DNA of 64,000 nt from IMG/VR virus record IMGVR_UViG_3300010883_024574, positions 22,249 to 86,248 of that record; one strand, given 5' to 3'. The notes beneath the pieces are model-generated. The model was not told the DNA's origin. It saw only the letters and a list, made by a program, of their open reading frames with translations, and searched no databases. The translations under genes and the position numbers were made by a program. Shown here piece after piece: positions 5,496 to 64,000 of this stretch. The number at the start of each line of letters is the position of its first letter. The first letter of the stretch is position 1. The DNA is from a virus.

Positions 5496-6593
5496 ATGAT
5501 TACGAAAGTAGCTCAACCTCCTTGGTGGCCCAAAGTTCTTTCTGGTATAAGAAAGATTACGAACCTTCCTCCGGAGGTGAGAGGTCTTATAGACGCCCCT
5601 CAGAGGCTCGTCTTTCATCAAGCGACTCCTGCCGGGGCAGATTCTATGGCAAAGGGGTATGTATCAACAGAGGATTCAGATGATGATGGCAACCTCGATA
5701 CAGTTAATTTGGTTGTTACAAATATGGAAAAGGAGATACCATCTGACCTGCTAACCGGAATAAATCAGATGGACGAAACAGATCCGAATTTTCAGGAAAT
5801 TGTATCTAATATAGCTAAGACTTTGGTTCATGAGTTAGCTCATATAGAAGACTATGATCCCGATAGAGGATTTGCAGGAGGAGAGCCTGTGGCAGAATCA
5901 AAAGAAAGGTCTTTTAATCCGATTTTTGCACATTCTACTACTAATAAAAATATTGGTAATGATAGTATTATCAAACTGAACTCTAAGGGAGAACTTAAAA
6001 TGACCAAAGACATAATTAAACTAGCTAATCATTTAGATCAAATTGGGCATAAAGATTTGGCAGACAGACTTGACTCCATCATCAAAGCTGCGCAAGAGCT
6101 TCCTTGGGAAGAGCAACCACCGGCACTGATAGATTTAGAGGTCGGAGAGAAACCTGCAAATGAGGTGGCAGAAGATTGTGGCGCAGAAGGCTGCATAACT
6201 GGTCCGACTGGCATTGTGTTTTCGCTGGGGCACAAGTGTTTTAAAGACAAAAAGGACCACAGCCTGGGCACGAAAGATTGTTATCAGATTGTAAGTACTG
6301 GTGATTCAAAGGCGGCTGGCATTGAACAGTGGGAAGGAATGTTTTTTAGTGGAGACCATAGGGCATTAATGCAAGAGCTTAGTAGTGCTAGAGAATGGGT
6401 CGCACAAAAGGAGAGAGCGAGTGGCGCTGAACAGCCAAATATGACCAATACTACTGGCTCTCCAGACCTTGTTGATGACTCAGATGATTATTTAGCAGCA
6501 GGTCAAACTACTCAAGATAAGATTAATAAGTTAGCAGAGTTAATGGCGGGCGAGTTAAGCTCGGGAACCCCAGGGTCTTTCTACCGTAGATAA
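5496..6593 (+). CDS. HExxH zinc-metallopeptidase-like protein carrying the LANHLD module
   Basis: TLVHELAHIED zincin motif; begins MITKVAQ; KLANHLDQIGHKDLADRLDSIIKAAQ follows an internal in-frame ATG at 6000. Confidence 0.6.
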   Translation: MITKVAQPPWWPKVLSGIRKITNLPPEVRGLIDAPQRLVFHQATPAGADSMAKGYVSTEDSDDDGNLDTVNLVVTNMEKEIPSDLLTGINQMDETDPNFQEIVSNIAKTLVHELAHIEDYDPDRGFAGGEPVAESKERSFNPIFAHSTTNKNIGNDSIIKLNSKGELKMTKDIIKLANHLDQIGHKDLADRLDSIIKAAQELPWEEQPPALIDLEVGEKPANEVAEDCGAEGCITGPTGIVFSLGHKCFKDKKDHSLGTKDCYQIVSTGDSKAAGIEQWEGMFFSGDHRALMQELSSAREWVAQKERASGAEQPNMTNTTGSPDLVDDSDDYLAAGQTTQDKINKLAELMAGELSSGTPGSFYRR

Positions 6594-6617
6594 TATAAGG
6601 ATATAAGGATAAATAAA

Positions 6618-7988
6618 ATGCAAAAAACACTTCAAGAAAGCCTCATTGGGCTGGCAAACCATTTAGATGATAAAGGTTACTTAAAACTTGCAGATCAAGT
6701 TGATTCCATTGTAAAGATGGCTCAGACTACCGATGATGATGATTCGGCAACCGATGATGATGATTCGGCAACAGATCCTAATGCAGCAGCAGCAACAGAT
6801 CCTAATGCAGCAGCAGCAACAGATCCTAATGCAGCAACAGATCCTAATGCAGCAGCAGATCCTAATGCAGCAGCAGATCCTAATGCAGCAGCAGATCCTA
6901 ATGCAGCAGCAGATCCTAATGCAGCAACAGCAACAGATCCTAATGCAGCAACAGATCCTAATGCAGCAACAGATCCTAATGCAGCAACAGATCCTAATGC
7001 AGCAGCAGCAACAACAGATCCTAATGCAGGTACAGGGTCCGCACCAACAATGACCGCAGAGAACTTTCATGAAGCAGGCCAGGGTTATGCAGATACTTAT
7101 TCAGAGCAATTGGTTGCAGCCAATGGAAAATGGGACTTTGTTCTCAAGGGATATGGCAACAGGGATTGGTTAGTAAAAGGGCCTAATGAAGTTTGGCTCT
7201 ATTCTCCAGGTATGTCAGGCACACCATCTAAGTTTACTGCTACTTATGCAAAGAGATATGCAAAACGACAGTTTGAGGGCAATCCGGATAAAGCGCCATT
7301 AAATTGGGATCAGATGGTGAAAAACCTAAACAGTCATACAGACAATGTTAAAGACGAAGGCCCTGGCTCTATAGTTTTTCAGGCTAGAGAGCCTCTTGCA
7401 GACGAGACAGATCCGGCTGGAAACCCGTGGGGTGAGGACGCTCAACAGGCAAGAGAAACAGCGTCTAGAGATTCTCATCAGACTGATGCAGAGAAGGCTA
7501 TTGCAAGAAGTCAAGCCCCAGCAGAAGAGGCAGATGAAACAGCAGCCGCAGCCGCCACAGCAGCGCCAGACGGTGAAGCATTGACTCGCAGCTTAAAAGC
7601 AGAGAACCAAAGAGCTTTTAGAACTGCTGCAAATAATATTCGCAGAGGACAGGTGTGGACCCAACGGAAGGCGATTGGCAAAGTAACTTTGCCTCACAAT
7701 AGTCCTGAAAAACGAAACGCAAAGGCAAGAGAGATATTATTATCAGCTGTTAACGAATTACCAGATGTTACAGACAAAGGTGCTGCGGTAGAAAGCATGT
7801 TTAACTATCTCGAAACCTGGCTGAGAGACCCCAATGCTGAAGCCGAAGTAGCTGAAGCACTCGACGGGTTACTTTCAGAGGACGGGTTACTTTCAGATGC
7901 AGAGTATCAAGGTTATAGAATAGAAAAGACAGCAGAAAAGCTTTCACAATTATTTAGCGTTCAAGACATACCATCCGTAAGGAGGTAA
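6618..7988 (+). CDS. hypothetical probable virion protein with N-terminal LANHLD module and DPNA repeats
   Basis: GLANHLDDKGYLKLADQVDSIVKMAQ then 13 DPNA units; C-terminal IEKTA motif. Confidence 0.7.
   Translation: MQKTLQESLIGLANHLDDKGYLKLADQVDSIVKMAQTTDDDDSATDDDDSATDPNAAAATDPNAAAATDPNAATDPNAAADPNAAADPNAAADPNAAADPNAATATDPNAATDPNAATDPNAATDPNAAAATTDPNAGTGSAPTMTAENFHEAGQGYADTYSEQLVAANGKWDFVLKGYGNRDWLVKGPNEVWLYSPGMSGTPSKFTATYAKRYAKRQFEGNPDKAPLNWDQMVKNLNSHTDNVKDEGPGSIVFQAREPLADETDPAGNPWGEDAQQARETASRDSHQTDAEKAIARSQAPAEEADETAAAAATAAPDGEALTRSLKAENQRAFRTAANNIRRGQVWTQRKAIGKVTLPHNSPEKRNAKAREILLSAVNELPDVTDKGAAVESMFNYLETWLRDPNAEAEVAEALDGLLSEDGLLSDAEYQGYRIEKTAEKLSQLFSVQDIPSVRR
6729..7028 (+). repeat. in-frame tandem repeat: 2x21 bp (TDDDDSA) plus 13x GATCCTAATGCA with variable GCA/ACA tails
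   Basis: Read directly; the DPNA core uses identical codons in every unit. Confidence 0.97.
7863..7898 (+). repeat. 18-bp tandem duplication (DGLLSE/DGLLSD)
   Basis: GACGGGTTACTTTCAGAG followed by GACGGGTTACTTTCAGAT. Confidence 0.9.
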
Positions 7989-7989
7989 T

Positions 7990-10359
7990 ATGGAGGAAGA
8001 GAAAGAAGAGCTTTCTCTTCTAGATCTAATAAGTTACCATGAGACTGGCCCCGTTCTTAAGGAGCGGCCAAATGATGTTCTTAGAACCCCGTCTCATCCT
8101 GAAGAGTTAAACTTTAATTATGTTGACGACGACGAAATCCCGTGCAAAAGCTTGACAAGAAAAGCAAAACTTGCAAAGATGCAAAAGAAAGCCTTGGGGT
8201 TAACAGATATTCCCGGAGGAAGTCCTCCCGGAGCACAGGGCTATAGACCAAGATCTAGCTATGAACAACAAGATTTTCAAACATCCCACACCACAGGTTT
8301 CGGTGGACCATCAGTTATAGATGTTGAGGAGGATAAGCCTCCGTCAAATATCAACAGAAGGCAGCGAAAGAAACCTATTAATATTTCGTTTAAAACTGAG
8401 ACAGATAACTTTTTTAGTTTCTTAGAGACCGGCAGATTAAGAAGAAGAAGGAAAAGGGTAGGAGCCACTATGAACACAGAACAAAGAGAATTAACCAAGC
8501 TTGCTAAAGCCTTAAGGCTTTCTGGCTATAACGAACAGGCTGGCGCAATAATAAGGTTGGCAGCAGGAGGCTTTGCCCCAGATCCTTTGAGTTCCGAAAA
8601 AGCAGATTGGGTTTCTGCCGTAACAGCTGCAACTGACGTAATAACCAAGCCCCCGATGAGCCTAGGTCCAGATGCAGAAACTGCAGCAGATACACATGGT
8701 GCAAAAGCATTGTTTGATGCTTATATCTCTCACCTTCTGACCCGGGTGAAGACGAGGCTTGAGACCAGCGCGTCTGGGGGACTCCACCAGTGTAACCCAT
8801 CGGCAGCTCCACTCGTACCCTGCGGGCTAACCTCTACTCAGGTTTCGGCTATACATTCTGCCCTAGAAACAGCGTGGAAAGCTTTTAGCATTGATTCTTA
8901 TAAACCTGGCGATTTAAACAACTCTTTCGTTGGTGCTTTTGATTCAAACAAGGGGCTTTCATCGGGTGAGAGTGGTATAGCATGGCTAAGCGGTGGTAAG
9001 ATATATGACAAAAAGGCCGATGCTAACTTGGTATTGCTTCAAGAATTAAAAAAGAAAGAGAAAGGCGGCGCCGTAGGAGGCTCTGGAAAAGGCTCTGGAA
9101 AAGGCTCTGGAGGAGGCTCTGTAGGAGGCTCTGGAGGAGGCTCTGGAGGTAGTCGTATGGCAGACTATACAGGGCAATATATCAAGAATAGAGACACAGG
9201 TAATGACTTTAGAGATTGGGTTCATTCTTCGGGAAATCTTGAAGCGGTAAATGCACAGATTGTAGCTGACAACTCCAAGAGAACAGACGGCCTTGATAAA
9301 GGCTCTTCTTCCGCAAGTTGGTCCAATGGTTACATGTGGAGTGCTTGGAAGGCTGTTGGAGAAAAGTATAAGAGATCTAGAACAGGCAGAGAAAATAAGC
9401 CAGAAGGAGAAGGCACAGAGCAAAGAGGTGGCAGTCTAAGCCCTGGGTCTGAAGATCAAGAGCTTCCACTGAAAGCCTATCTTCAAGCACCTATGGGAAA
9501 AGCTCTTGGTGGAGATGAAGTACACAACTTACCATTAGCAGCAAGAAACAGATTGCTTAGAGCAGTCGGAAGCGTAGGAAGAACAAGAAGGGATGGCGAA
9601 GACCCGCCTATAGTCCCAGCAGATGACGGCTTAAGAGACACTCTATTGAGCGATCAGTTCAAAGCACACGTTGAAGAAGCTTATTTTGAAGATGCAGCAG
9701 ATGATCCTTATTATGGCATTAAGCTTAAAAGACTTATGAGAGATGGTGGCGGAAGAAGAGGTCGGCGCAGACAGCTGGCTGGAGCCGCAACAGGTGATGG
9801 TGGAGAGATCAACAGAAATGATTATGTTATTGCTGGAGACATTTGGTTTAAGAAGTCAGATGCATCGGTTTGGTTTAAGACTAGTTACCCTGCTGCAAAT
9901 GCAAAAGAAAAACTACCAGACAACTCTTACACTATAGCCCCAATAGCATCAAGAGACGGTTGGCCTGGGCAGATCGCTCCATATAATGTGGGGTATTTAG
10001 AAGGCTCTGAGAGAAAGGCTATTATAAGCGCATTAGGAGCAGAGTATCCAACCCTGACTAATCGCGACTCCTCAAAGTCCGGAGGGCATCTCTTAGAGGC
10101 TCTATTCTCTGGCCAGCAACAGGCTACAAGGGGTGGGGTATTTAATACTGATTCACACAGAGCAAAGGGCGTTGAGAAAAGAGATAAGGCAAGAAGGGGT
10201 TTGCAGAGTCTTCTTACACCCCTTTTGGGGCAAGCTGATCGCGCAGAAGATTTAAGAGATCTGACCCGGGCAGCGCGGGCTAATGATCATGTTTTGGTAT
10301 CTATGGGTAATGAGGTCAGAAAAAGAAGGATAAACGCCTTAAGAAAAAATAGTATTTAA
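7990..10359 (+). CDS. hypothetical Gly-rich probable virion protein with internal LANHLD-like module
   Basis: 789 aa; ELTKLAKALRLSGYNEQAGAIIRLAA follows an internal GGAG RBS and ATG at 8470. Confidence 0.65.
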   Translation: MEEEKEELSLLDLISYHETGPVLKERPNDVLRTPSHPEELNFNYVDDDEIPCKSLTRKAKLAKMQKKALGLTDIPGGSPPGAQGYRPRSSYEQQDFQTSHTTGFGGPSVIDVEEDKPPSNINRRQRKKPINISFKTETDNFFSFLETGRLRRRRKRVGATMNTEQRELTKLAKALRLSGYNEQAGAIIRLAAGGFAPDPLSSEKADWVSAVTAATDVITKPPMSLGPDAETAADTHGAKALFDAYISHLLTRVKTRLETSASGGLHQCNPSAAPLVPCGLTSTQVSAIHSALETAWKAFSIDSYKPGDLNNSFVGAFDSNKGLSSGESGIAWLSGGKIYDKKADANLVLLQELKKKEKGGAVGGSGKGSGKGSGGGSVGGSGGGSGGSRMADYTGQYIKNRDTGNDFRDWVHSSGNLEAVNAQIVADNSKRTDGLDKGSSSASWSNGYMWSAWKAVGEKYKRSRTGRENKPEGEGTEQRGGSLSPGSEDQELPLKAYLQAPMGKALGGDEVHNLPLAARNRLLRAVGSVGRTRRDGEDPPIVPADDGLRDTLLSDQFKAHVEEAYFEDAADDPYYGIKLKRLMRDGGGRRGRRRQLAGAATGDGGEINRNDYVIAGDIWFKKSDASVWFKTSYPAANAKEKLPDNSYTIAPIASRDGWPGQIAPYNVGYLEGSERKAIISALGAEYPTLTNRDSSKSGGHLLEALFSGQQQATRGGVFNTDSHRAKGVEKRDKARRGLQSLLTPLLGQADRAEDLRDLTRAARANDHVLVSMGNEVRKRRINALRKNSI
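9073..9150 (+). repeat. 12-bp tandem repeat encoding a Gly/Ser linker
   Basis: About 6 units of G(G/T)A(GG/AA)AGGCTCT encoding VGGS/GKGS/GGGS. Confidence 0.9.
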
Positions 10360-20421: not shown

Positions 20422-21124
20422 CGGTATTGATCTTTATGGGGACGGAATAGGGCAAGTAGAACTCGTTGACTATATGGGTTCTGACTTGACCGTAGTGAAC
20501 AGTGCTCGTGTAAGCTTTGGGAGAACAAAACAAGAGTTAGACCATAAAGATAAAAGGCTTATTAAGTACCTAGTAAACCACAAGCATACCTCTACCTTAG
20601 AACATAATGTTGTTACCTTTCGCTTTTGTGTTCCTCTCTTTGTAAGAAGTCAACACCATCGTCATAGGACTTGGTCATATAATGAAATCTCAAGAAGATA
20701 TACAGACTTTGACATAAGGTTTTATAGCCCACAGATGTTCAGAACTCAACACGAATCTAATAGGCAAGCTAGCAACGCAGACCAGATGGTTAATCCTTTG
20801 GTGTCATATCCAAGGGTTGATTACGCAGCTTGCGTTGCGTCTGACGCGGTGCAAAAGCATAGTGAAATAAGTTTATCGCTTTATAATAGACTTGTTGGTG
20901 CAGGGGTCTGTAGAGAACAAGCTAGAGGCGTTTTGCCCCAGAATATGTATACAGAATATTATGGAACAGTAAATCTAAACAACTTATTAAAGTTTGTTGA
21001 CCTAAGGCTTCATGAAGGAGCGCAGAAGGAGATTCAGGTGGTGGCTAAAGCTTGTTTGGATATTGTGTCAAATCTATGGCCAATCACGGTTGATGCCCAT
21101 AGAGAGAGAACAACCCGCGATTAA
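20414..21124 (+). CDS. thyX: FAD-dependent thymidylate synthase
   Basis: NSARVSF, HTSTLEH, RHRTWSYNEISRRY, REQARGVLP and LRLHEGAQKEI motifs. Confidence 0.95.
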   Translation: MADGIDLYGDGIGQVELVDYMGSDLTVVNSARVSFGRTKQELDHKDKRLIKYLVNHKHTSTLEHNVVTFRFCVPLFVRSQHHRHRTWSYNEISRRYTDFDIRFYSPQMFRTQHESNRQASNADQMVNPLVSYPRVDYAACVASDAVQKHSEISLSLYNRLVGAGVCREQARGVLPQNMYTEYYGTVNLNNLLKFVDLRLHEGAQKEIQVVAKACLDIVSNLWPITVDAHRERTTRD

Positions 21125-21239
21125 GGTCGGACGAACCCTTCTGGGCAAAAGCTTCACAAGAATTCGCGCCGGGTTGTGTTTAATATTTAATTGATATTAA
21201 TATGATTTTTAAGTATATATAATTTAGTCGGAGTAATAT

Positions 21240-21572
21240 ATGAGTATGGTTGATTTGTTCCTTTTTACATTCGGATGTGCTGGTCTTACAGTAATCCTTG
21301 TATTAAGTTCGGTTTTAGAGCCAGTTAGAGATTTTGTTTCTTCAAAGTCTACTTCTTTGGGGAAGTTAATTAATTGTACTATGTGTTCTGGTTTTTGGGT
21401 TGGGCTGGTGGCTGCACTTTTGACTGGAGTAAATCCTGTGTGGGGAGCGGCTATATCTAGTTTGTTTAGCTGGAGTATTTCGAATATTGTAGAATCCTTT
21501 TTTGCAGTAGGAGTATACTTTGATTCAATGTTAGAAGAGGATGGAGAAGAAGATGAAAGAATTGTTGAATAG
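21240..21572 (+). CDS. small membrane protein with CxxC (DUF1360-like)
   Basis: Hydrophobic segments flanking LINCTMCSGFWVG. Confidence 0.6.
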   Translation: MSMVDLFLFTFGCAGLTVILVLSSVLEPVRDFVSSKSTSLGKLINCTMCSGFWVGLVAALLTGVNPVWGAAISSLFSWSISNIVESFFAVGVYFDSMLEEDGEEDERIVE

Positions 21573-22056
21573 AATATCTATACCTGGAAGAATCATAGAC
21601 CTACTGTGGTCAGATGATGAATTCTTTAGAGATGTGTCATCGAATAAAAAGACGGCTTCTGCTGGCAAGTTTCCAAGGTGCGACCAGTGGTGCGATGATA
21701 CCGGCTTTCATATGGCCTTTGCATTAGCAGGATACTCGCCGGGAGACGTTGATATTGTTGTTAAAAATAATGAACTTTATATAAATGGCCTTGGATCTAA
21801 GTTAGAAGCATTTGGCGATACTAAAACATCTGATACGATAGATGATGAGTATCCAATCAAGACTCCAAACCTTGGGGTTCAGCAGGGCATGATTGTTCGT
21901 GGAATTGCTAGAAGAAATTTTAAAACAAAGTATTTTATAAATCCCTCTTTTAATCTTGTAGGCGCAACAGCTTCTATGAGAAATGGATTACTTGAAATCG
22001 TAATTCCAAAGAAAGAAGAAGAGGGAGAGAAATCTATTAAGGTAGAGGAGAAATGA
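21541..22056 (+). CDS. small heat-shock protein (Hsp20/alpha-crystallin)
   Basis: ALAGYSPGDVDI, RGIARRNF and ASMRNGLLEIVIPK motifs. Confidence 0.9.
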   Translation: MEKKMKELLNRISIPGRIIDLLWSDDEFFRDVSSNKKTASAGKFPRCDQWCDDTGFHMAFALAGYSPGDVDIVVKNNELYINGLGSKLEAFGDTKTSDTIDDEYPIKTPNLGVQQGMIVRGIARRNFKTKYFINPSFNLVGATASMRNGLLEIVIPKKEEEGEKSIKVEEK

Positions 22057-22057
22057 A

Positions 22058-22315
22058 ATGAGTACAAATATTGAATCACTATTAAGAACCATGGTTACTA
22101 GCATCGTTGATGATGTAGAGTCGGTAAGCATAGAAGAGGCAGAGACAGATAAAGAAGGTACGCTTTATGAGGTAAAGGTTGGCAAAGATGATGTTGGAAA
22201 GGTCATTGGCAAACAAGGAAGAATTGCTAGCGCCATAAGAACGGTTGCAAAGGCGGCTGGCGCAAAGAATGGTGAGAAGATTATGATTAATGTATTTAAT
22301 AAACCTTTGGAGTAA
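22058..22315 (+). CDS. khpA: KH-domain RNA-binding protein KhpA (UPF0109)
   Basis: IVDDVESV...DVGKVIGKQGRIASAIRTV with an intact GxxG loop; 85 aa. Confidence 0.88.
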   Translation: MSTNIESLLRTMVTSIVDDVESVSIEEAETDKEGTLYEVKVGKDDVGKVIGKQGRIASAIRTVAKAAGAKNGEKIMINVFNKPLE

Positions 22316-22319
22316 ATAT

Positions 22320-22700
22320 ATGACCATTGTTAACTGGAGACAAAAATGTTTAAACTATCCAAGCATTATGTTTGGAAGGGCTGTTCAAAATGCCAGAAAC
22401 AGAGCAAAGAAAAGGGATATACCTTTTGAATTAACAAAAGAGTATATAGTGGCTTTATTTGAAGAACAGGATGGAAAGTGTTTCTATTCTGATATAAGGC
22501 TAAATATTGTTAAAAAGAATAAGGATCGAACACATGATCCTTTTAAGATGTCTTTAGATTGCGTGGTTCCAGGCTTGGGATACGTAAAAGGAAATGTTGT
22601 ATGGTGCGCTTATTGCGTAAATGCACTTAAGCTAAAGATGTCAAAAGAGGATATGATAGAGGTATGCAGACATATAGTCAAAAAGACTGATAGTGTTTGA
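22320..22700 (+). CDS. HNH-like (His-Me finger) endonuclease domain protein
   Basis: QDGKCFYS...SLDCVVPGLGYVKGNVVW...VNALK; GGAG RBS before ATG 22320. Confidence 0.65.
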   Translation: MTIVNWRQKCLNYPSIMFGRAVQNARNRAKKRDIPFELTKEYIVALFEEQDGKCFYSDIRLNIVKKNKDRTHDPFKMSLDCVVPGLGYVKGNVVWCAYCVNALKLKMSKEDMIEVCRHIVKKTDSV

Positions 22701-22940: not shown

Positions 22941-22952
22941 CTATTAATATTT
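22941..22952 (+). promoter_or_regulatory. putative late-promoter box
   Basis: CTATTAATATTT, identical 12-mer to 8375-8386; precedes HU and the tail-fibre genes. Confidence 0.4.
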
Positions 22953-22994: not shown

Positions 22995-23288
22995 GTGATA
23001 AATATGGTAAATAAAAAAGATTTGGCTAAAAAGGTTGCAGCGAAGACGCTTCTGTCTCAGAAGGAGGCTTTGCAGGTCATAGATGGACTGATCGATACAA
23101 TAGTGGAATCATTAGAAGAAGACGGAGAAGTGTCAATAGTTGGGTTTGGAAAGTATTATTTATATACACACGCAGCTCGACCTGTTAGAAACCCAAAGAC
23201 ACAAGAGGAAATGGTGCTAAAGCCTTATAAGTCTGTTAAGTTTAAAGTAAGTGACAAAATTAAAAAGCATTTTAAGAATTTAAAATAA
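22995..23288 (+). CDS. HU/IHF-family DNA-binding protein
   Basis: NKKDLAKKVA...VSIVGFGK...ARPVRNPKTQE...VKFKVS motifs. Confidence 0.92.
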   Translation: MINMVNKKDLAKKVAAKTLLSQKEALQVIDGLIDTIVESLEEDGEVSIVGFGKYYLYTHAARPVRNPKTQEEMVLKPYKSVKFKVSDKIKKHFKNLK

Positions 23289-23297: not shown

Positions 23298-26200
23298 ATG
23301 GCTACGGATAGCGATGGCAAGCTTACAAAATTTGAATCCTCAGTTACAGTTGTTACTGCCGAATTAGCAAACTCTTTATTTGGAGGATTATACGGTACAA
23401 GCGAAGTGGCGTCGAAAGACACGTACCACCCACTCGCGCACGGACACGTGCATGATGGCGAACACATTGATGGTCACGCCTCTCCAGTAAGCCTGTCAGA
23501 GCCTTACCATATAAGAGGGGTCCTGGTTCATGACAACCTAGGTGATGATGCGGTGATGAAGAACAATGTTTTTGACTCTATCTACCAAGACGATGTCATC
23601 CCAGAGTACGAAGAAATAGGCGGTGAGATACGTTACTACCTTGACCTGAGATCTATTAGGTCAGACTTTATATTTAGAGAAGTACAGGACCCCGCAGGTG
23701 ATAGAGGCCTACTGTCGGGGGCTGAAAATAAACTTATAAGGCAACGCAAGCAGCATTGGGACGGAAGTGCGTGTGCTGATATAGCAGATATTTGGGAAGA
23801 CGCAGAACCTAATGGATATGACTTTGTCTTTGGATCAGAATCTCTTGAAGATTTAGATCTCTTGGGGGCTGGAGATAATAGATTTTTATTTGATAAATCA
23901 AAAGGAGCCTTTAGAGCAGGCGGGGTTGAGGGGACCAAGTGGGACAACGCTAACCGAGGAAACTACTCTGTAGCCTTTGGAAAAAATACTAAAGCATCTG
24001 GAAACAAATCAGCTGTTGGTGGAGGCGAAAACAATGAGGCATCTGGGATAGAGTCAACAGTCTCCGGCGGTGACTCAAACAAGGCAGAGGCAAGCAACTC
24101 CACCATTGGTGGTGGTCAGCAAAATGAAATAGACAATATGTCAACCGACTCCACCATTGGTGGAGGCACAACAAACATAATAGACAATGGATCATTATCC
24201 GCTACGATTGGTGGTGGATTTGTAAACAAGATAGATAGTGGATCGGTTTATTCTATCATCGGCGGGGGCTTTCAAAATAAGATAATTGATACAAGCGAAG
24301 TGGCATCGACAACACACTCTGTCGTTTCGGGAGGCGGTGATAATAAAATAGATAATGGCTCAACCCATTCCACCATCGGGGGCGGCACAACAAATACCAT
24401 AGATAATGCATCAATCGAGGCAGCTATTAGCGGTGGCAGCACAAACGTAATAGACAACGGATCATCAGGATCTTGTATCGGCGGTGGCAATAATAACACT
24501 ATAGACCTATCGGGTCTATCTACTCTTTCTGGCGGTCAGCACAACAAGATAGACGCGGCATCATCCTTTTCTGCGATAGCTGGAGGAGGGGGAGTGGCCG
24601 AGGCTGATGGTAATTATATTTCTGGTGCATTATCCTCTTTCATTGGAGGCGGCACAGGCAACACTATAACAGACGCAGGATCGGTTATTGGTGGAGGCAT
24701 TGATAACACGGCATCAGGCGGAGGCTCGACCGTAGGTGGTGGAGCAAACAATAGTGCCCTTGGAGATTACTCTGTTGTATCCGGTGGCGGCGGGGCGAAT
24801 CTTGCCGACAGAAACTCTGCATCATCCCCAGGCTCTTTCGTCGGCGGTGGCCGGTCGAATGATGCGCAGGGGAGTTATTCGGTTATTTGCGGCGGTGATA
24901 ACAACGAAGTAAGTAGCGACAGTTCCGTTATCGTCGGTGGAAATAATAATGATATAACTGGCAACTCTCAGTTCTCTATAATCGCCGGAGGAGGCGGAGC
25001 TGCCGGAGAGGGAAACGCTATAGGTGTTGAGTACATAACTACTTATAGCGGCCTACTCACAGCTCCGCCAACCCCATCTCCTGTTTCTGGAATATTTGGC
25101 GGGAAGAAGAACCGTGTTGTAGGCGGGCTTGATACAAGCGGCAATCCTGTTGGAGAATTTAACTTTATAATAGGCGGCTTACAAAATGGCATAGGCGCAG
25201 TAGAAGGGTCGGTTGAATCCTGTTACATATTAGGTGGTACGCAAAATGATATCATTGCAAGCCAGCCTGTTGGCTCTGTTATAAGAAACTCAATGATTGG
25301 AGTTGGTGATACTAATGTTTTAGCAACTGCAGGCGGTCTCGTTATAGACTATTGTGCAATTTTCTCTGGGTTAAGCAATCTAATAGAAGTGAAACAAAAC
25401 CCTGGCTCAGAGGCCTTATTTTGTACAATTTTAAACGGACACGAAAATAAAATTATAACTGCAGGACAGACCTCCTCGATAATTGGCGGCTCTAATAATG
25501 AGATCTCTTCTGCCTCAGGCGCCTTTTCATCTACTACAACAGCCACGTCAACAATTATTGGTGGCTATAAAAACAAAATAGATAGCTGTCATGGCTCTAT
25601 AATAGGCGGCGGTGGAACGCAGATAGATCCGCTGGGAAACCCCCTTCCGCCATATACTATTGCAGGTGGAAGCACTGGCAATGAAATAAACAATTCTCAT
25701 TATACTTCGATATTAGGAGGAAGTTCCAACAAGATAGATGAGCAGTCTCACTTTTCTACCATTTTATCTGGAGAAGATAATCTTATTACAAACCTCGCCA
25801 CATGGTCGAGCATCCCTTATGGATCAAAAAATATAGTTAAATCTTATGGAGGAACGAAAACAAGTCATGCTTCAGCAGCTGGCCTTGAAAGCTGCTCTTA
25901 TACTTTTGGGCAGGACTCTTTATCCTCTGGAAACTTTGATGTATTGGGAGATACATATCTTCAAACCTATGCTCCAAATCCAGCTATTGGGACGCCTGGA
26001 GTTTATGGGGGGAACACCCTCGTCGGAGAAACAGGTGGTGCTCAATCATTTATTTTAAATGCCTTTGGACATTGGCGGTATTTGGAACCTCATATTGTAG
26101 ATCCAGCAAGCTCTCCGAATTTCGGAGAATATGTTGCATACTTTGATGGCAACAGCGTTATGTTTCAGCCAAGAGAGAATTCTGTTTATAGCTTTAATTT

Positions 26201-53695: not shown

Positions 53696-54238
53696 ATGAA
53701 AACAATACTAGGATTAGACATATCATCAAGCACCATTGGCTGGGCAATACTCGAATATAATAATGACAAAGTTGATTTAAAAGAGTATGGAAATATAAAG
53801 CCTCCAAAAAGCAACAAAGGCTCTTTAACTTTTAGGGCCAGTGCTGCTTATGATGAGGTTTATGATTTTCTTATAAAGAAAAACCCCGACGCCATAGCTA
53901 TAGAGGCTTACGCAAATAAGTTTCCAGCAGGCCGCAGTACTGCTAGGACAATAATTGTTTTATCTGTTTTTAATGAATTGGTATCAATGGCCTGTCTTAA
54001 AAGCCTAGGGCAGGAGCCGAGCAGGTATGCGGTTGTAACCGTAAGGTCTATGCTCTCAAAGCATGCTGGATATAGAATTTCCTCAAAAGAAGATTGTTTT
54101 GAGTTTATAAAAAAAGACTTTATTTCTTTTAGTTCAAGAACTAATAGAAATGGTAAAATAGCTAAAGAATGCTTTGACGAAGCAGACGCAATTGCTGTCG
54201 CATTAACATATATTCTAAAGGAAAAAGATAATGGCTAA
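53696..54238 (+). CDS. RuvC-like Holliday junction resolvase
   Basis: ILGLDISSSTIGWA, IAIE, SKED and DEADAIAVA motifs. Confidence 0.85.
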   Translation: MKTILGLDISSSTIGWAILEYNNDKVDLKEYGNIKPPKSNKGSLTFRASAAYDEVYDFLIKKNPDAIAIEAYANKFPAGRSTARTIIVLSVFNELVSMACLKSLGQEPSRYAVVTVRSMLSKHAGYRISSKEDCFEFIKKDFISFSSRTNRNGKIAKECFDEADAIAVALTYILKEKDNG

Positions 54239-55886
54239 AGATTTAACATACAATAGAGAAGCTAGGTCTGTACTTTTGTCTGGTGCGGAGAAGCTGGCAA
54301 AGACAGTTGGGGTCACAATGGGGCCTCAAGGAAAGCACGTTATTTTGGGAAAGTTTACGGGCGCTCCAATTCTGACGAAAGATGGAGTAACAGTAGCTAG
54401 GGAGGTTACCCTTCCTCATCCTATAGAGGACTTAGCTTGCGAGCTTATAAAGGAAGCTGCGGGCAGAACGGCGGCTGTAGCGGGAGACGGAACGACAACG
54501 GCTACAGTCTTAGCTCATGAAATCTTTAAAAGAGGAAATGATTTAATAAATGAGAATTATAGTCCGCTTTACTTAAAAAGAGGAATTGAATGGGCTGTAG
54601 ATAGAGTTATTGATAATTTAAGCGGAATGGCAACAGAAATAGATGGATTTAAATCTCTTGAGAATATTGCAACAATTTCTGCAAACAATGATAGCGCCAT
54701 TGGAAGCAAGATAGCAGAGGCTTTTGATGCCATAGGATTAGAGGGGGCTGTGGCGGCAGAGGCCTGCCCTGGATCAGAAACATCTGTTAGGTTTGTAGAC
54801 GGAGTAGAGTTGAGAAGCGGGTATGTAACCCCCGCCTTTTTAACGGAAGACGGGCAATCAGATATCATTATTGATAATTGCAATATTCTGATATGTAATG
54901 ATGAAATAACATCTTTATCTTCTTGTCTTAGTTTATTTAATGAATTGTCGAACAAAAATCAACCTATATTAATTTTAGCAAAAGCAGTTAAACAAGAGGC
55001 TTTAGCAACATTGGTTACCAATAATAACCTAGGAAGACTCAAGGTTGTTGCGGTTAACATACCGAACCTTAGTATGGCCGCAGGAAGCCAGGATGAATGG
55101 CTTGAGGCTCTTTCTGTGCTGGTTGGAACGAGGGTCTTCGGAAAGGAGGCCGGGGCCCCCTTGATGAACGCAGGAGCGCAGGACTTGGGCTTTGCGAGAA
55201 AGGTCGTTGTAAATCGATTTTTAACAAAAATCTTTGAAGGAAGAAAGGACGAAGCACGCCTGGAAGAAAAGCTGGCCTTATACAAGAAAGATATGGATAC
55301 CCTTATTGGTGATTCGGCAAGGCTAGATGTAAGAAGCAGGATTGCATTTTTGAGAAACAAAGCTGCTATAATAACAGTAGGATACTCTACAGAACTTGAG
55401 CTTAGAGAGAAGGGGGATAGGGTTGATGATGCTATTTGCGCGACCCGAGCAGCAATAGAAGAGGGCTTTATTCCCGGAGGAGGAATATCGTTGCTTAAGG
55501 CTGCAGAAAAAGTTGATTTATCAGAGTTAGATAAAGAACTGGTTCCGGCAGCAAAGGTGCTCTTGGCCGCGTGTGCGCGTCCAATCACGCAGATTGTTGA
55601 AAATGCTTTTGAGGATTCTGGTAAAATAATAAAGAGGGTTTTAAACTCAAAAAATATAAATTTTGGTTATAATGCTGCAAATGGAAAATTTGAAGATTTA
55701 GTTAAAGCTGGAGTTATTGATCCAATGAAAGTCACAAGAACGGCGTTGCAAAATGCCGCCAGTATTTCGTTATTATTAATAAATACGGAAGCAATCGTGT
55801 CAGAACAGGCGGATAATCCGTCTAGCTGGCAACCACCTGTCGGCTGGCGGCCGCCAAGTGATGGTGGATTAGAACACAAATATTAA
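54231..55886 (+). CDS. groEL: chaperonin GroEL, second paralogue
   Basis: TMGPQG, TKDGVTVA, GDGTTTATVLA, IATISAN, RVDDA, PGGG and DPMKVTRTALQNAAS motifs. Confidence 0.96.
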   Translation: MAKDLTYNREARSVLLSGAEKLAKTVGVTMGPQGKHVILGKFTGAPILTKDGVTVAREVTLPHPIEDLACELIKEAAGRTAAVAGDGTTTATVLAHEIFKRGNDLINENYSPLYLKRGIEWAVDRVIDNLSGMATEIDGFKSLENIATISANNDSAIGSKIAEAFDAIGLEGAVAAEACPGSETSVRFVDGVELRSGYVTPAFLTEDGQSDIIIDNCNILICNDEITSLSSCLSLFNELSNKNQPILILAKAVKQEALATLVTNNNLGRLKVVAVNIPNLSMAAGSQDEWLEALSVLVGTRVFGKEAGAPLMNAGAQDLGFARKVVVNRFLTKIFEGRKDEARLEEKLALYKKDMDTLIGDSARLDVRSRIAFLRNKAAIITVGYSTELELREKGDRVDDAICATRAAIEEGFIPGGGISLLKAAEKVDLSELDKELVPAAKVLLAACARPITQIVENAFEDSGKIIKRVLNSKNINFGYNAANGKFEDLVKAGVIDPMKVTRTALQNAASISLLLINTEAIVSEQADNPSSWQPPVGWRPPSDGGLEHKY

Positions 55887-58173: not shown

Positions 58174-58611
58174 GTGGCTAGAAAAAGCAAGACATATCAA
58201 TATAAAATTGTAGAAATATCATTTGAAGCTGCAAAATTAAATAATTTTTCATCGGAGAGAGGCATTGGCCAGGTTCTGATGGATAATGCTTCTGATGAAA
58301 GAATATCTGATCTAAAAGAAGAGTTATTAGATGAGATCTATGACATAGTAAATGGCGCCTACTTAACAGAGCATCAGAAAAAGATATTATTTATGCGCCT
58401 CATGGGCAAAACCCAAAATGATATCGCTGAGCATTTAGGCATAACTCAATCTGCTGTTCATAAAGCTATGCATGGTAATATAGATTATAAAAATCAAAAA
58501 AAGCGCTATGGCGGTATTGTCAAAAAGTTACAAAAAATATGCAAAACACATCCTAGGATAAATGAGATTTTAGAAGAGATAGCTAAAATTAATCATGGAG
58601 ATCCAGAGTAA
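58174..58611 (+). CDS. sigma-70 region-4-like HTH protein
   Basis: LTEHQKKILFMRLMGKTQNDIAEHLGITQSAVHK; no region 2. Confidence 0.75.
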   Translation: MARKSKTYQYKIVEISFEAAKLNNFSSERGIGQVLMDNASDERISDLKEELLDEIYDIVNGAYLTEHQKKILFMRLMGKTQNDIAEHLGITQSAVHKAMHGNIDYKNQKKRYGGIVKKLQKICKTHPRINEILEEIAKINHGDPE

Positions 58612-58696: not shown

Positions 58697-58707
58697 CTAT
58701 TAATAAA
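58697..58707 (+). promoter_or_regulatory. putative late-promoter box
   Basis: CTATTAATAAA 33 nt upstream of ORF 58730, at the head of the second virion-like cluster. Confidence 0.4.
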
Positions 58708-58729: not shown

Positions 58730-59212
58730 GTGTTCATGCCTGAGTTAGACGACGTTCTGATTGATTTTTTTAAAAAACAATCATCTGATATATCTGTTAA
58801 AGATATAATTCCAATGACTAATGATCTAAAGATTAAAAAAATTGCATTTGATATGTACAAGGTAATGGGCGATCAATATGACGATCTATGGAAGGTTGAA
58901 GAGATAGACGGAGCAACCTTTTTGGTTAGAAGCTCTGATCCGAAATATCAAAAGAAAGAAGGCGGAGATTGGAGTGCTTCTAGTAATTATGATCATAACC
59001 ATGTAACTCTTTCTTATAAAAATATCCCTATTTGTAGTTTTTCATCAGATGAATATGGCTTTTCTAGTGATGATATTTTTACGTTTAAGTCAGCATTGTT
59101 AGATGTTATTGATTCAGATAGAGAGTTTGTTAAAAAGGTTGTCGCAAGTCAGCCGAAGGCAAAAGCAGAAGTTATCAAGAATCTTTTTCCAGAAATACTA
59201 AAAAACAAATAG
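58730..59212 (+). CDS. hypothetical protein
   Basis: AAGGAG RBS with GTG start; IKKIA motif. Confidence 0.7.
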   Translation: MFMPELDDVLIDFFKKQSSDISVKDIIPMTNDLKIKKIAFDMYKVMGDQYDDLWKVEEIDGATFLVRSSDPKYQKKEGGDWSASSNYDHNHVTLSYKNIPICSFSSDEYGFSSDDIFTFKSALLDVIDSDREFVKKVVASQPKAKAEVIKNLFPEILKNK

Positions 59213-59226: not shown

Positions 59227-60786
59227 ATGAATGAAATAAAGCATATTGTAGCACAGGCAAAAATGGCCTTGGACAAAATAGAGAATGGCAAGACCTTTAC
59301 CACTAGCTATGTTTTGGGCCGCCTAGAAAGTGCTGCTGCAAATAACTCTAGAGATGTATTAATTTGTCATGCTCGGGATGTAATTGTAAGGAAAGCTGGC
59401 AATCAACAATTTATTACGCAAAAAGAAATTGCCGAAGTTCATGATCATCTGTGCGGTCTTGCAAGTGGGAGATCTAACTTCAGAAAAGAGCTTGGCGATC
59501 TATTGCCGGATAAGCATGCGATTTTAAAAGAAATAAAGAAAGGCGCTGCAAGCGCAAGAATTCCATATGAAGAAAAGCTATCTCCATTGTTTGAAGAGAA
59601 TGAATTATCTAAAGAGTTGGCTGGTGTGTTTTCGCTAGATAAGCAATCTTCTTTTTCTGCATTATCTAACAATTCGATTAAAAAGGCCGAAAAATTTGCA
59701 AGATTACAATTAATCTCTTTAGGCTGCGTGCCTCAAGAGGTTAAGGCTATTAGGACAAATGATCACTTTATTCTTTGCAATGCATCTGTTGATACATCAG
59801 ATTTTACACAAGTAAATATTCCAATTCCAGTCCAGGTGACAAAAGGCATCCCATCGCTGCCAACTCATTTTGTACAGGGAGATAATCTTGTAAAACTAAA
59901 TAAAGAAAATATTTATGTTTTTATAAAGGATAAAAATAATTTTATTAAGAAGACTGCAGCCAGCAGATTTGCAGAGCAGAGAAGCTCTAGAGACTTCAAG
60001 GTTGATACGCCAGTAGTTCCTGTTGCACTGGAAAAGTATGCCGACCTGGAAAACGAGTTAGTAACCGCTGCTTCATCTTTTAGTAGAGATCAGATTAGAG
60101 TCGCTACAGGGGTTGTCGCAGCAGAGCTTGCCAGCCTGGGTGTTCCAAACCCTCAAGTTCGTGTTTCATACTCGACAGACAAGGTGCTTGCTTTTGCTGC
60201 AGATATACCAACCCCTCATGGCCGGGTTGAGATAGATATTCCTGTTGATATGCCGAACGGTCGGCCGGTTATTCCAAACAGCTTTGTAATCAAGGGCAAA
60301 GGCTACAAGCTAAACGAAGATGGCCTTAGAACTGTCATTAAGGCTTCAAGCCATGTAGAGGATCTAAACAAGGTTTCTAGAGAGGTGGTTGAGATGTCAA
60401 GACTGTCATATCCTCAGCTTATAAATAGGATGGTAGATGGCGTTTCTAGAACCGACTATAGACAAGCGGAAGATGCGCTCAGTGTTATAGGAAATAAGTT
60501 TGATGGAGCGCAATATTTAGCAGCACTTGATAAATTTACAAAATTACTAAAGCACTCATCTAATGGAACAGAAAGAGATGCAATGATAAAAAAGGCTTTA
60601 GAGAATGGAGACTTGATAAGAGTTCCTACGTCTGTTCAGCCTTATTGTCCCAAGTTGGGGCTGCCAGTTAGCAAGATCAGCTTTGACGCCAAAGGTAGGC
60701 CTGTGCCAACAAGGAGGGCCTCACAGACGGAGGATCTTGATAGCCTCGGAGCGGCAATTTCATCATCAAGAGTTACTTTATCATAA
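59227..60786 (+). CDS. hypothetical protein, probably structural
   Basis: 519 aa; several KxA/S motifs (IKKTA, LLKHS); internally repeated IPVxxxxGxPxxPxxF segment. Confidence 0.65.
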   Translation: MNEIKHIVAQAKMALDKIENGKTFTTSYVLGRLESAAANNSRDVLICHARDVIVRKAGNQQFITQKEIAEVHDHLCGLASGRSNFRKELGDLLPDKHAILKEIKKGAASARIPYEEKLSPLFEENELSKELAGVFSLDKQSSFSALSNNSIKKAEKFARLQLISLGCVPQEVKAIRTNDHFILCNASVDTSDFTQVNIPIPVQVTKGIPSLPTHFVQGDNLVKLNKENIYVFIKDKNNFIKKTAASRFAEQRSSRDFKVDTPVVPVALEKYADLENELVTAASSFSRDQIRVATGVVAAELASLGVPNPQVRVSYSTDKVLAFAADIPTPHGRVEIDIPVDMPNGRPVIPNSFVIKGKGYKLNEDGLRTVIKASSHVEDLNKVSREVVEMSRLSYPQLINRMVDGVSRTDYRQAEDALSVIGNKFDGAQYLAALDKFTKLLKHSSNGTERDAMIKKALENGDLIRVPTSVQPYCPKLGLPVSKISFDAKGRPVPTRRASQTEDLDSLGAAISSSRVTLS

Positions 60787-60795
60787 GGAAGAAAC

Positions 60796-61347
60796 ATGAG
60801 CAATAGAGTTAAAGAAATAAAAAATATATTGAAAAATTCTAAAAACAATGAGCCAAAAAGAAGAGAGACTCTTCGAAAGCTTGCCCTTGGAGATCAGCAT
60901 GGTGCTTTTCAACACTTTCAGTCCAATGTGGCAGAATATGCAACTCGCGAAAGATACCTGGCTACCAGAGGCGGCGAGCTTCTGGGCAGAGATACTGCCA
61001 GCTTATACGGAATAACTCCTGATCATGAGGATTCATATATTCCTAGCGAGACTGGTGCAACACATTTGTCAACCAGATATTCTCCTGATCGCGTGGGCGT
61101 GCAAGCCATGCGCGTGTCTGATGGCGTGTTTCAAGATCCTTATACCAACAAGGTTTATGATTACAACGAAGGCTTTAAAACGGAAGATGGCAGAGAGTTT
61201 CCTGGTGGTGGCGCAGCATTGCAGTCCAGCATGATGCATCTGGCAAATCATTTAGATAAGATTGGCCTGGTAAAAGAAGCTAATTATTTAGATTCTTTGG
61301 CAAAAGAATCAAGCTCGATTTTTGGTCCTTCCCTTAAGAAGGAGTAG
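60796..61347 (+). CDS. hypothetical protein with C-terminal LANHLD module
   Basis: MMHLANHLDKIGLVKEANYLDSLAKES near the C-terminus; LRKLA near the N-terminus. Confidence 0.7.
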   Translation: MSNRVKEIKNILKNSKNNEPKRRETLRKLALGDQHGAFQHFQSNVAEYATRERYLATRGGELLGRDTASLYGITPDHEDSYIPSETGATHLSTRYSPDRVGVQAMRVSDGVFQDPYTNKVYDYNEGFKTEDGREFPGGGAALQSSMMHLANHLDKIGLVKEANYLDSLAKESSSIFGPSLKKE

Positions 61348-61392
61348 GCCTTGGGCTGTTGGTTCTAATTGACTTATAAATTAAATATTAAT

Positions 61393-61432: not shown

Positions 61433-61442
61433 AGAGGTAAAT

Positions 61443-62126
61443 ATGAGCAAAAAAGTATTAAATCATCCAGACAAAGAGGAGCTTATAAAAAAGCTTTTAG
61501 AAGGCGATTCTGTAAAAGAGGTAGAGCGCTGGCTTAAGGACAAGTATCCAAGAACCAGAAGGCTTCATGTCTCTTATATGACCTTGCAAAAGTTTAGAGG
61601 TGAACACCTAAACTTGAAGGGTGAGGTTTTAGATGACATTAAAAATAGAAGAGGAGAGATAGATAAGGAGGCCACAGAAGCTGAAGCTCGCATGATTATA
61701 AAGGCCTCCTCTTCGTACCAGCAGAAGATTGATGAAATCGCAACGTCTGAGTTAGACGTTGCAAAAAGACTCCTTGAGTTAGATAGTCTTATAAATTCTA
61801 GAATTGAATACTATTATAACTTGTTACAAGAGGGAGGCTCTCTCCGGGAGGATAAGATTTTCATTGAATATATAAACACTATGAAGACGCTGATGCAAGA
61901 CTGGAAGAAGTATATTGAGGGTGTTGCAGATAAAAAGATTGAACATAATATTAATATTAATGTAGTAAATGAACAGGCTAGAATTTTGAAAGAGGTTGTG
62001 CTAGACGTGTTGCGGGAGTTGAGCCCAAATCTTGTGCCCATTTTTGTTGATAAGTTGGACATTAAGACACGAGAATTAAACGGAGAAAGTTTAGATTATA
62101 TTAGGGGAGAAGTTATAGATGTCTAG
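61443..62126 (+). CDS. possible terminase small subunit (HTH, coiled coil, C-terminal beta strand)
   Basis: N-terminal HTH-like region (LNHPDKEELIKKLLEGDSVKEVERWL...VSYMTLQKF), helical middle and KIEHNININV strand. Architecture only. Confidence 0.4.
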   Translation: MSKKVLNHPDKEELIKKLLEGDSVKEVERWLKDKYPRTRRLHVSYMTLQKFRGEHLNLKGEVLDDIKNRRGEIDKEATEAEARMIIKASSSYQQKIDEIATSELDVAKRLLELDSLINSRIEYYYNLLQEGGSLREDKIFIEYINTMKTLMQDWKKYIEGVADKKIEHNININVVNEQARILKEVVLDVLRELSPNLVPIFVDKLDIKTRELNGESLDYIRGEVIDV

Positions 62127-62388
62127 TGAAAGCGAAATATATGAAAAGCGTCTTGCTCTAAAGGACTTAAATAGTGAAATATCTTTTAAGAACTGGTTAG
62201 TAGAGAATCTTTCCATATATAGTGAAATATCTGATGTTAAACAAATTCATGTAGAGCGCTTTTTAAAAGAGTATATTATTCCAAAATTTTCTGAGTTAAA
62301 CGGAGAAGTGGCAAACGAATGGAAGGAAGAGGTTAAGGGGATATTGGGAGTAGAAAGCTTAACAGAGTGGATAAGGCGGTCTGTGTGA
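62119..62388 (+). CDS. hypothetical protein
   Basis: 89 aa; GGGGAG RBS. Confidence 0.65.
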   Translation: MSSESEIYEKRLALKDLNSEISFKNWLVENLSIYSEISDVKQIHVERFLKEYIIPKFSELNGEVANEWKEEVKGILGVESLTEWIRRSV

Positions 62389-64000
62389 GTCAAGATAAAG
62401 TAAATAATTATTTTATTAAAAAACTGGCAAGTTTGGCTATAAGCGCACGCACGCCCGAGTTTGATCAGATATCTGACAAATCTAAGGAGTTAACAATACT
62501 TGGGATTGATAGTGATGAAAAATTTAAAAAGTATTTTTTATTAAAATCAGCATCAAAAAGCTTTAAAATAAAGCTTTCCGCAGAAGAAAATATAGAATTA
62601 TTAAAGTTAAAAACAAGAAATTTAAACGATGCTTATTATAATATAATTGGAATGAAAATAGAAAAAGGAAAAATAAAAAAGGTTGCTTATCCTAATATGG
62701 GCGGATTCAGAGAAGATGTTCGGGAAGAGTTTAATATTAATAATTGGTTAAAGATTGTTCATCTTATCTATGATTCTGTTGCAAGCCAAGAAATGACAAA
62801 GGAAAGTGCTTTAGATTATTATAGTAATTTTTTAAATATAGAAGAAGATGAAGATGAAAAGTTTAAAAAATGGTTTAAATATTATAGCAATGGCGAACAT
62901 TTGAAATACAGTTCAAAAGAGGATAAAGATATGAAAAAGAAAGCTGTTTACATTAGCGATATGGGACAAGGAAATAGTCCATATTATGCCGGCGGAGGAA
63001 GTGCATATTTGGGAGAAAATACGGGTTATAATATGCCTGGAGACAGCCTTGATCAGCATCTTTTCGATCATGTGTCATCAAATGCCGATAAAGCTGTTCA
63101 TGATAAAGATGCCTTTAGTGGATGGAAGGGAAAACTTCATACTGCAATTAGGCGTATAGATAAGCTCTTGAGAACAGATCGGTATATGGATTCAGATACT
63201 TATAGGATTCTTGCAGAACATCTTATGAATCTCAGTTTGCAAGTTCAAATGTTAAAATTAAGCAATACTATGTCAGACGTAACTTACAAGACCGCGAATA
63301 GCTTTACTAAATTGGGGCACAAACAGGGGGCTGATATTTTAAAGAAAATAGCTCAAGAGGTTCCGGAACAACCTCCTTTGGAGGCTCGGCCAGACCCTAG
63401 GCTTGATGGGGAGCAGGAGCCTTTAGAAGCAGAGCCCGAGGAGACTCTTGCGGAGGAGGCCGCTCCGGCTCTTGCGGAGGAGGCCGCTCCGGCTCTTGCG
63501 GAGGAGGCCGCTCCGGCTCCAGAGGAAGAGGCTGCACGGAGCCCTAAGGATGCTATTCCAAAATCAGATGAGGTAGAACCCGTCTCTCTTGAGGATATTA
63601 CACCAATCCCCGGAGCCAGACAGGGTGAGTATGACGAGCTTGCTGGAGAGATCAAGCTTGAAGATGCCGCCACAAAGCTTGACGAGGTTGCCGGGATGCT
63701 TGCAGATAGAAGAATAATTCGCCAACTGGCCGAATTTGACATAATGTTAGACAAAATAGGCATAGCATCTATGTTTCCAGAGCTTGCAGAGTCTCAGAGT
63801 AAATTGATCGATGCATACTCATATGCTTTAACAAGGGTAACCAAGATGATGGGGCAGCTTGCCAACGCTAAGGCTTTGGTCCAAGCACAAAAAACTATTC
63901 CGGGAACGGAAGGAGTTTCTGAGCCGCAGGAAGAGACAGAAGATGAGACTCCTATTCCAGATGAGGCTCCTATTCCAGATGAGGCTCCTATTCCAGATGA
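62385..64000 (+). CDS. hypothetical probable virion protein, 3'-truncated by the window edge (not in ORF track)
   Basis: GTG overlapping the previous TGA; open to the window end: MSQDKVNNYFIKKLAS...IKKVAYP...MKKKAV...YKTANSFTKLGHKQGADILKKIAQEVPEQPP... Confidence 0.85.
   Translation, partial: MSQDKVNNYFIKKLASLAISARTPEFDQISDKSKELTILGIDSDEKFKKYFLLKSASKSFKIKLSAEENIELLKLKTRNLNDAYYNIIGMKIEKGKIKKVAYPNMGGFREDVREEFNINNWLKIVHLIYDSVASQEMTKESALDYYSNFLNIEEDEDEKFKKWFKYYSNGEHLKYSSKEDKDMKKKAVYISDMGQGNSPYYAGGGSAYLGENTGYNMPGDSLDQHLFDHVSSNADKAVHDKDAFSGWKGKLHTAIRRIDKLLRTDRYMDSDTYRILAEHLMNLSLQVQMLKLSNTMSDVTYKTANSFTKLGHKQGADILKKIAQEVPEQPPLEARPDPRLDGEQEPLEAEPEETLAEEAAPALAEEAAPALAEEAAPAPEEEAARSPKDAIPKSDEVEPVSLEDITPIPGARQGEYDELAGEIKLEDAATKLDEVAGMLADRRIIRQLAEFDIMLDKIGIASMFPELAESQSKLIDAYSYALTRVTKMMGQLANAKALVQAQKTIPGTEGVSEPQEETEDETPIPDEAPIPDEAPIPD
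63445..63519 (+). repeat. 24-bp perfect tandem repeat x3 (LAEEAAPA)
   Basis: CTCTTGCGGAGGAGGCCGCTCCGG repeated three times. Confidence 0.95.
63942..64000 (+). repeat. 18-bp tandem repeat, at least 3 units (DEAPIP), runs off the window
   Basis: GATGAG(A/G)CTCCTATTCCA units. Confidence 0.95.

Follow-up and report, generated by a model that had tools for sequence, protein, structure and literature searches.

Unrelated proteins encoded in a 64,000-nucleotide stretch of viral DNA share a helical module of 32 residues. The stretch, referred to as the window throughout, belongs to the 86,248-bp contig IMGVR_UViG_3300010883_024574, which has no terminal overlap. The module is portable, sharply bounded, abundant and under selection at the protein level. 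We tentatively favour the reading that it acts as a portable docking tag whose likely destination would be the virion or prohead, a reading that we would place somewhat short of an even chance.

A portable helix-glycine-helix module

The module is a helix-Gly-helix hairpin with the consensus M-I-K-E-L-I-K-L-A-N-H-L-D-x-K-G-L-x-K-E-A-D-Y-L-D-x-I-I-K-K-A. Three strong copies, proposed in a preliminary description of the window, are real: a hidden Markov model (HMM) seeded with the three scores them at 63-65 bits and everything else in the whole 86-kb genome at 5 bits or below, and in an all-against-all BLASTP comparison their carriers match one another over the 29-32 residues of the module only. 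Iteration of the HMM on related loci left the number of strong copies in the genome at three. Two marginal copies outside the window are full-length and exactly N-terminal, with 8.0 and 7.5 bits, a score of 8 bits being reached in 1/20 shuffled-proteome controls.

Degenerate copies had also been suspected, and these fared differently. Taken alone, the sequence at 8470 fails the HMM. In G005, the orthologue of its carrier shows a canonical module at the corresponding site (28.5 bits); in the 70%-identical orthologue from G002 the module is weak, and the module profile is placed exactly on the site by hhalign (Table 1). By the evidence of its orthologues, the 8470 copy is thus a true, degenerate member of the module family. 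The copy at 63270 is weakly supported: when hhalign aligns the module profile with a family of 544-residue proteins, the top local match falls there, and helix-Gly-helix is conserved at that place in all 17 orthologues, but the match has a probability of 5%. A further copy at the C-terminus of ORF (open reading frame) 2153 was unsupported. The similar continuations reported after the 6000 and 63270 copies (AQELPWEEQPP and AQEVPEQPP) are present, and in the 544-residue family KIAQE[VI]P is invariant just before a linker; however, orthologues of the 6000 carrier do not retain the continuation.

Information content across 269 distinct copies is high at nearly all positions from 5 to 28 and reaches background level after position 32. 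Synonymous sites are saturated (proportion of synonymous differences, pS, 0.75 versus 0.27 for nonsynonymous differences, pN, in 25 copies) and invariant residues are encoded by mixed codons, which points to selection on the protein rather than on the DNA. The same figures bear on the idea that the module has no sorting role and is a recombination scar, the conserved 5′ end of a gene cassette or a chance similarity between helices. The module does sit at gene boundaries, and gene fusions and fissions occur at it, as a DNA-level origin would have it. However, that origin is largely refuted by the saturation and the mixed codons, the C-terminal copies have no 5′ cassette context, and HMM scores far above those of shuffled controls speak against chance, so that we regard the idea as scarcely credible.

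Each helix carries two hydrophobic stripes, and conservation extends to almost all faces of the hairpin. For an orthologue with two modules, AlphaFold2 modelled each as a helix-turn-helix hairpin, with a predicted local distance difference test (pLDDT) of 71-82. Searches of the module against Pfam and PHROG gave no family, 92 carriers gave scattered single weak matches only, and a literature search with the motif string of the module returned nothing relevant. In a PDB profile search the sole resemblance was to a designed tetratricopeptide repeat (TPR) protein, which is not significant (E=9.1). A TPR is likewise a helix-turn-helix of ~32-34 residues with small residues 12 apart where the helices cross (A9 and A21 here); it differs in that TPRs occur as tandem arrays of at least three repeats, whereas the module is usually a single copy, and no Pfam TPR model matched. 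The best explanation of these features is that the module may be an autonomously folding hairpin of ~32 residues resembling one TPR repeat, to which, jointly with the docking role, we give a little less than even weight.

The module is widespread in viral sequences related to the contig. The sequences related to it are uncultured marine contigs, the largest of 316-352 kb. When 1.84 billion cluster representatives were searched with the profile, 3,184 proteins matched at E<=1e-3, and 594 did so at E<=1e-10; no copy turned up when 185,579 bacterial and archaeal genomes were scanned with a pattern. Single copies are nearly always found at residues 1-31 of proteins of 40-260 residues. The best 150 proteins had 125 copies at the N-terminus, almost always beginning at residue 1, as well as 27 at the C-terminus and 66 in internal positions; many of these proteins are tagged at both ends, and proteins with two or three copies occur. 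Once the module was masked, 46 distinct carriers fell into 21 families, which bears out the earlier proposal of a position-independent module on unrelated cargo. The objection that the carriers might be full-length paralogues sharing a folded domain does not hold. The cargo parts are unrelated, almost without Pfam domains, soluble (2/144 look membrane-spanning, versus 12.7% of background proteins) and acidic (median isoelectric point 5.0). Among the relatives, G001 has 15 copies and G003 has 21, including a tandem array of ~12 copies in 9 kb, and the others have 9, 8 and 4.

Internal starts and a shared upstream motif

Internal copies mostly begin with Met. The 6000 copy had been called internal, as it is within ORF 5496-6593, but it also forms the N-terminus of a putative nested product with its own ATG and ribosome-binding site. 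In five orthologues of this carrier, which has an HExxH motif, the string GGAGA-N2-TTAAA-ATG is invariant and the flanking linker diverges. At both 6000 and 8470 a conserved internal ribosome-binding site precedes an in-frame start, and a promoter-like motif lies further upstream (Table 1). Variants of the motif at 5938 are found 56-65 nt upstream in L029-L032, and CCTAYTAATA is found 84-115 nt upstream in five orthologues of the 8470 carrier. The peptides encoded by the latter differ (PINI, PTNN or PTNK), and that the motif is kept regardless speaks for a DNA-level function. In some relatives, moreover, what precedes the module and what follows it are encoded by separate ORFs. The pattern of starts and signals indicates that the basic unit is a 'Met-module-cargo' gene, frequently joined in frame to the gene before it with its own expression signals retained. 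With conserved internal signals in two ORFs, gene callers would merge or hide nested genes in these genomes.

The arrangement at 6000 recalls the nested in-frame genes of phage head assembly, as in lambda C/Nu3, in that an internal ribosome-binding site and in-frame ATG within a protease-like ORF would give a second product with a common C-terminus. It differs in that the upstream domain is of HExxH type rather than a serine protease, and no homology was found between the two.

The motif CTAYTAATA has five exact matches on the + strand of the window versus none on the - strand (0.94 expected), and a bias between strands is also seen in G001 (13 to 3) and G003 (5 to 1). At 58697 it precedes a closely spaced group made up of genes 58730-59212, 59227-60786 and 60796-61347, the last of which is carrier 3; in the G001 orthologue of the first gene the motif lies 5 nt upstream. 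It also heads a tail-fibre-like operon in the window (Table 1) and, in G001, the tail sheath gene (phrog_2839, 9e-17) and a baseplate-like gene. Overall, CTAYTAATA occurs within 150 nt upstream of 6/42 module starts versus 18/740 other genes (Fisher p=0.001). By this common motif, module units appear to be co-regulated with virion genes. A further exact CTATTAATA, at 3582-3590, falls within ORF 2153-5482 on its coding strand and is followed by neither a start codon nor a module.

A different signal, the 25-nt motif ATAAATAAGATCGATTYATTATAG, is present in ~33 copies on one strand of G001 between 166 and 192 kb (L052-L053), 17-75 nt upstream of small genes, and no module genes were found in this dense small-gene block. 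From its placement, ATAAATAAGATCGATTYATTATAG probably marks an early promoter class, and CTAYTAATA would be a late-like one.

These promoter classes help to weigh the suggestion that the module binds a conserved host protein, its variable parts being host-takeover or anti-defence effectors brought to that hub. The module is conserved far more across diverged phages than orthologous proteins are, as expected with a slowly evolving partner, and hypervariable cargo in tandem arrays is typical of accessory or counter-defence loci. However, the module genes are without the early-like motif that heads the dense small-gene region of G001, and conserved core proteins are tagged too (the HExxH protein, the 183-residue family of carrier 3 and a 789-residue family), so that we consider a host hub quite unlikely. 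The upstream motif shared with tail genes, together with the portability and constraint of the module, fits a docking tag for a conserved phage assembly.

Table 1. Positions of module copies, their carriers and associated signals in the window
Feature	Position	Strand	Remarks
Module copy 1, MTKDIIKLANHLDQIGHKDLADRLDSIIKAAQ	6000-6095	+	Residues 169-200 of ORF 5496-6593; starts at in-frame ATG; HMM 50-70 bits
Module copy 2	6630-6725	+	Residues 5-36 of ORF 6618-7988, N-terminal; HMM 43-71 bits
Module copy 3	61219-61314	+	Residues 142-173 of ORF 60796-61347, C-terminal; HMM 57-70 bits
Degenerate copy, MNTEQRELTKLAKALRLSGYNEQAGAIIRLAA	8470-8565	+	Inside ORF 7990-10359; in-frame ATG preceded by AGGAG; hhalign P=0.0007
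Possible, very degenerate copy	63270-63359	+	ORF 62367-end (544-residue family), followed by invariant IAQE[VI]P; hhalign P=0.0076; weak
Carrier 1	5496-6593	+	365 residues: N-terminal domain, linker, module, acidic C-terminal part
Carrier 2	6618-7988	+	456 residues; module N-terminal, then TDPNAA repeats
Carrier 3	60796-61347	+	183 residues, 'family 0'; module C-terminal
Shine-Dalgarno site, AAGGGAGA	5985-5992	+	For the internal start at 6000
Promoter-like motif, CTACTAATA	5938-5946	+	Exact match; 54 nt upstream of ATG 6000
Promoter-like motif, CTATTAATA	8375-8383	+	~87 nt upstream of ATG 8470
Promoter-like motif, CTATTAATA	58697-58705	+	25 nt upstream of 58730-59212
Promoter-like motif, CTATTAATA	22941-22949	+	Heads tail-fibre-like operon 22995-23288, 23298-26576, 26576-31414

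A proposed docking role and its possible destination

If the module is a docking tag, diverse proteins would share only the hairpin and through it bind one conserved partner, which could be an assembly that the phage builds or further copies of the hairpin itself. The partner may be a component of the virion or prohead, in which case tagged proteins would travel inside the particle or on it, much as T4 internal proteins do by means of their capsid targeting sequence (CTS). The T4 proteins IPI-III and Alt are highly diverse and share only the CTS, which loads its carriers into the prohead core (PMC3012670, PMC7411985). The likeness lies in diverse cargo having a short, mostly N-terminal tag alone in common, here across 21 carrier families. 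However, the CTS has 10-20 residues, is strictly N-terminal and is removed by gp21, whereas the module is a 32-residue hairpin that is also C-terminal, internal or repeated, and no gp21-type protease or conserved cleavage motif was found here.

The tag might be removed by proteolysis, for which the HExxH protein, carrier 1, is a candidate protease. Its N-terminal domain contains HELAH (5829-5843) and GGEPVAE (5877-5897), and HExxH and FPGGE..AE are conserved in nine homologues; the arrangement is zincin-like, an HExxH with a downstream third ligand. No Pfam or PHROG match was obtained for carrier 1, and there is no support for a peptidase family, the only match being to DUF2268 at E=0.2, for P0038. 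Judged by these motifs, the tag-bearing HExxH...GGE protein is a candidate for the processing protease.

Extending the docking reading, the module could be a sorting code used across the clade, in which a TPR-like hairpin would load, in each genome's case, dozens of hypervariable effectors and some enzymes into the capsid for co-injection, the cargo being expressed from nested 'Met-tag-cargo' genes with internal late promoters and processed by the tag-bearing zincin-like protease, which would accompany it. We consider this fuller version possible and somewhat unlikely. Were the module a sorting label, thousands of hypothetical proteins of abundant ocean jumbo phages would make up one functional class sent to a common place, and their function would become a testable question. 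The module would be a longer, folded and position-independent counterpart of the T4 CTS, and perhaps useful for loading foreign proteins into large capsids.

Several observations weigh against a destination in the particle. C-terminal copies, copies at both ends and an enzyme carrier argue against a simple cleaved N-terminal propeptide. The enzyme is a 784-residue PolyA_pol-family nucleotidyltransferase of G003, with the module at its extreme C-terminus (L065 10494-12848). The earlier statement that no enzyme carries the module therefore holds within the window but not across the clade. Hits to enzymatic genes were among the findings named in the preliminary description as refuting the capsid reading, and at least one occurs in a relative. 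The two-module AlphaFold2 model has a predicted template modelling score (pTM) of 0.29, so it shows no confident packing and gives no evidence on a binding partner. Beyond position 32, no conserved motif, and thus no cleavage motif, was found in the 269 copies. The K-x-A/S taken earlier for a cleavage point is the module's own conserved tail, and 20% of copies finish with [ASG]-x-E, close to the expectation from column frequencies.

Searches of the genome for T4 gp23, the T4 portal, Peptidase_S77 and the Pfam model of the tail sheath gave nothing usable (the control genomes were also without Peptidase_S77), and no major capsid, portal, scaffold or prohead protease gene was identified by these searches. 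The 519-residue neighbour of carrier 3 gave no grounds for a call as portal or capsid protein, its model having a pLDDT of 74, a pTM of 0.27 and no PDB fold match. The module arrays of G001 lie amid small accessory ORFs beside a DNA ligase gene, and not within a recognised head-gene cluster, the late role of CTAYTAATA is itself inferred, and the carriers had no match among GenBank phages, nor was a cultured relative found. Two other candidates were dropped. The 192-residue gene beside the G001 carriers, considered as a ClpP-like prohead protease from an 'enoyl-CoA hydratase' PHROG label, had no Pfam or PDB support and by eye resembles a Cys/His peptidase. P0030, which by eye resembled an M15/LAS peptidase, was unconfirmed as such by Pfam and PDB.

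A further comparison is with the propeptides of head and ejection proteins in giant phages of the SPN3US/phiKZ type. The sites of the SPN3US prohead protease are A-X-E (PMC7411985). These phages are also jumbo myophages, with many proteins inside the head, and the AAQE that ends copy 1 and the invariant IAQE in the 544-residue family resemble the SPN3US AQE sites, as a lead only. SPN3US propeptides differ in being ~110-130 residues long and not one common portable module; here A-X-E follows only ~20% of modules and Peptidase_S77 gave no match.

Short helical tags at either terminus, joined by a linker, also dock cargo to the shell in bacterial microcompartments (encapsulation peptides) and in encapsulins (cargo-loading peptides). 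The module resembles these tags in occupying either terminus of unrelated cargo. They differ from it in being shorter, as single helices or extended peptides, and in belonging to cellular operons, and there is no relation in sequence or family and no shell partner identified here.

The partner might instead be the module itself, or a hub outside the virion, with multi-tag scaffolds and single-tag clients building an intracellular phage compartment, a condensate or a multi-enzyme factory. Conservation of nearly every hairpin face, with two hydrophobic stripes per helix, would suit such self-association, as would the weak resemblance to TPR repeats, which stack side by side, the many proteins tagged at each end or two to three times, and a carrier that is an RNA nucleotidyltransferase. 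However, the low pTM noted above counts against confident packing of two tags within one chain, and many proteins with several tags resemble tandem 'Met-tag-cargo' genes fused by read-through, since their internal tags begin with Met. Moreover, the motif in common with tail genes points to particle assembly. We therefore judge self-association unlikely and retain the docking tag with a virion or prohead partner as the preferred, if tentative, reading.

Source contig and neighbouring genes

CheckV puts the completeness of the contig at 26%, giving a phage of roughly 330 kb. Its genes include a DnaE-type polymerase, RecA, SbcC, a primase, two GroEL paralogues and PKD-bearing tail-fibre-like proteins. 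The relative G001 (94% complete) encodes a tail sheath and a large terminase, the latter a weak match to a terminase model that was then confirmed with PHROGs; on this gene content the clade is one of jumbo myophages.

The two GroEL paralogues invite a further reading, that the module is a quality-control signal, either a client tag for the phage's GroEL-type chaperonins or a degron or adaptor site for a protease. It is, after all, an exposed amphipathic element at protein termini. The link is one of co-occurrence only, however; the module is longer and more sequence-specific than known degrons and chaperonin-binding elements, and two or three copies in one protein are left unexplained, which makes this reading very unlikely beside that of a docking tag. 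The paralogues lie at 54231-55886 of the window and at 20753-22357 of the genome (overlapping window 1-109). They are 35% identical to each other and both are kept in G001.

Scans of the carriers and of neighbouring genes against Pfam and PHROG left the carriers without a match. In carrier 2, ~17 TDPNAA(A) units directly follow the module, and ORF 7990-10359, which holds the degenerate 8470 copy, has low-complexity GSGKGSGGGS runs. Orthologues of the 183-residue 'family 0' often bear a second and third module copy; the model of this family was of low confidence (pLDDT 63) and gave no informative fold match. In the 544-residue family (62367-63998) a variable, acidic, proline-rich linker with the repeats EEAAPAL and PIPDEA separates a conserved N-terminal domain from a nearly invariant helical C-terminal region of ~110 residues. 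A PolyA_pol / CCA-adding-family nucleotidyltransferase of G001, 260 residues long (L023 13752-14534), is encoded between the 544-residue gene and the terminase gene.

The 519-residue protein (59227-60786) is very constant in length in more than 100 relatives and was modelled as two tandem alpha/beta repeat units; its sole structural match was the uncharacterised Gp7 of Bacillus phage G (BFVD). At 58174-58611 lies a gene for a 145-residue protein with a sigma-70 region-4-like helix-turn-helix (Pfam Sigma70_r4_2, 3e-06), flanked by the primase gene and the operon that CTATTAATA heads. On the strength of this domain it could be a phage transcription factor. Lastly, the large tail-fibre-like proteins encoded at 23298-26576 and 26576-31414 are paralogous, with a similar N-terminal region of ~500 residues (27% identity), and the second bears PKD and Ig-like domains.

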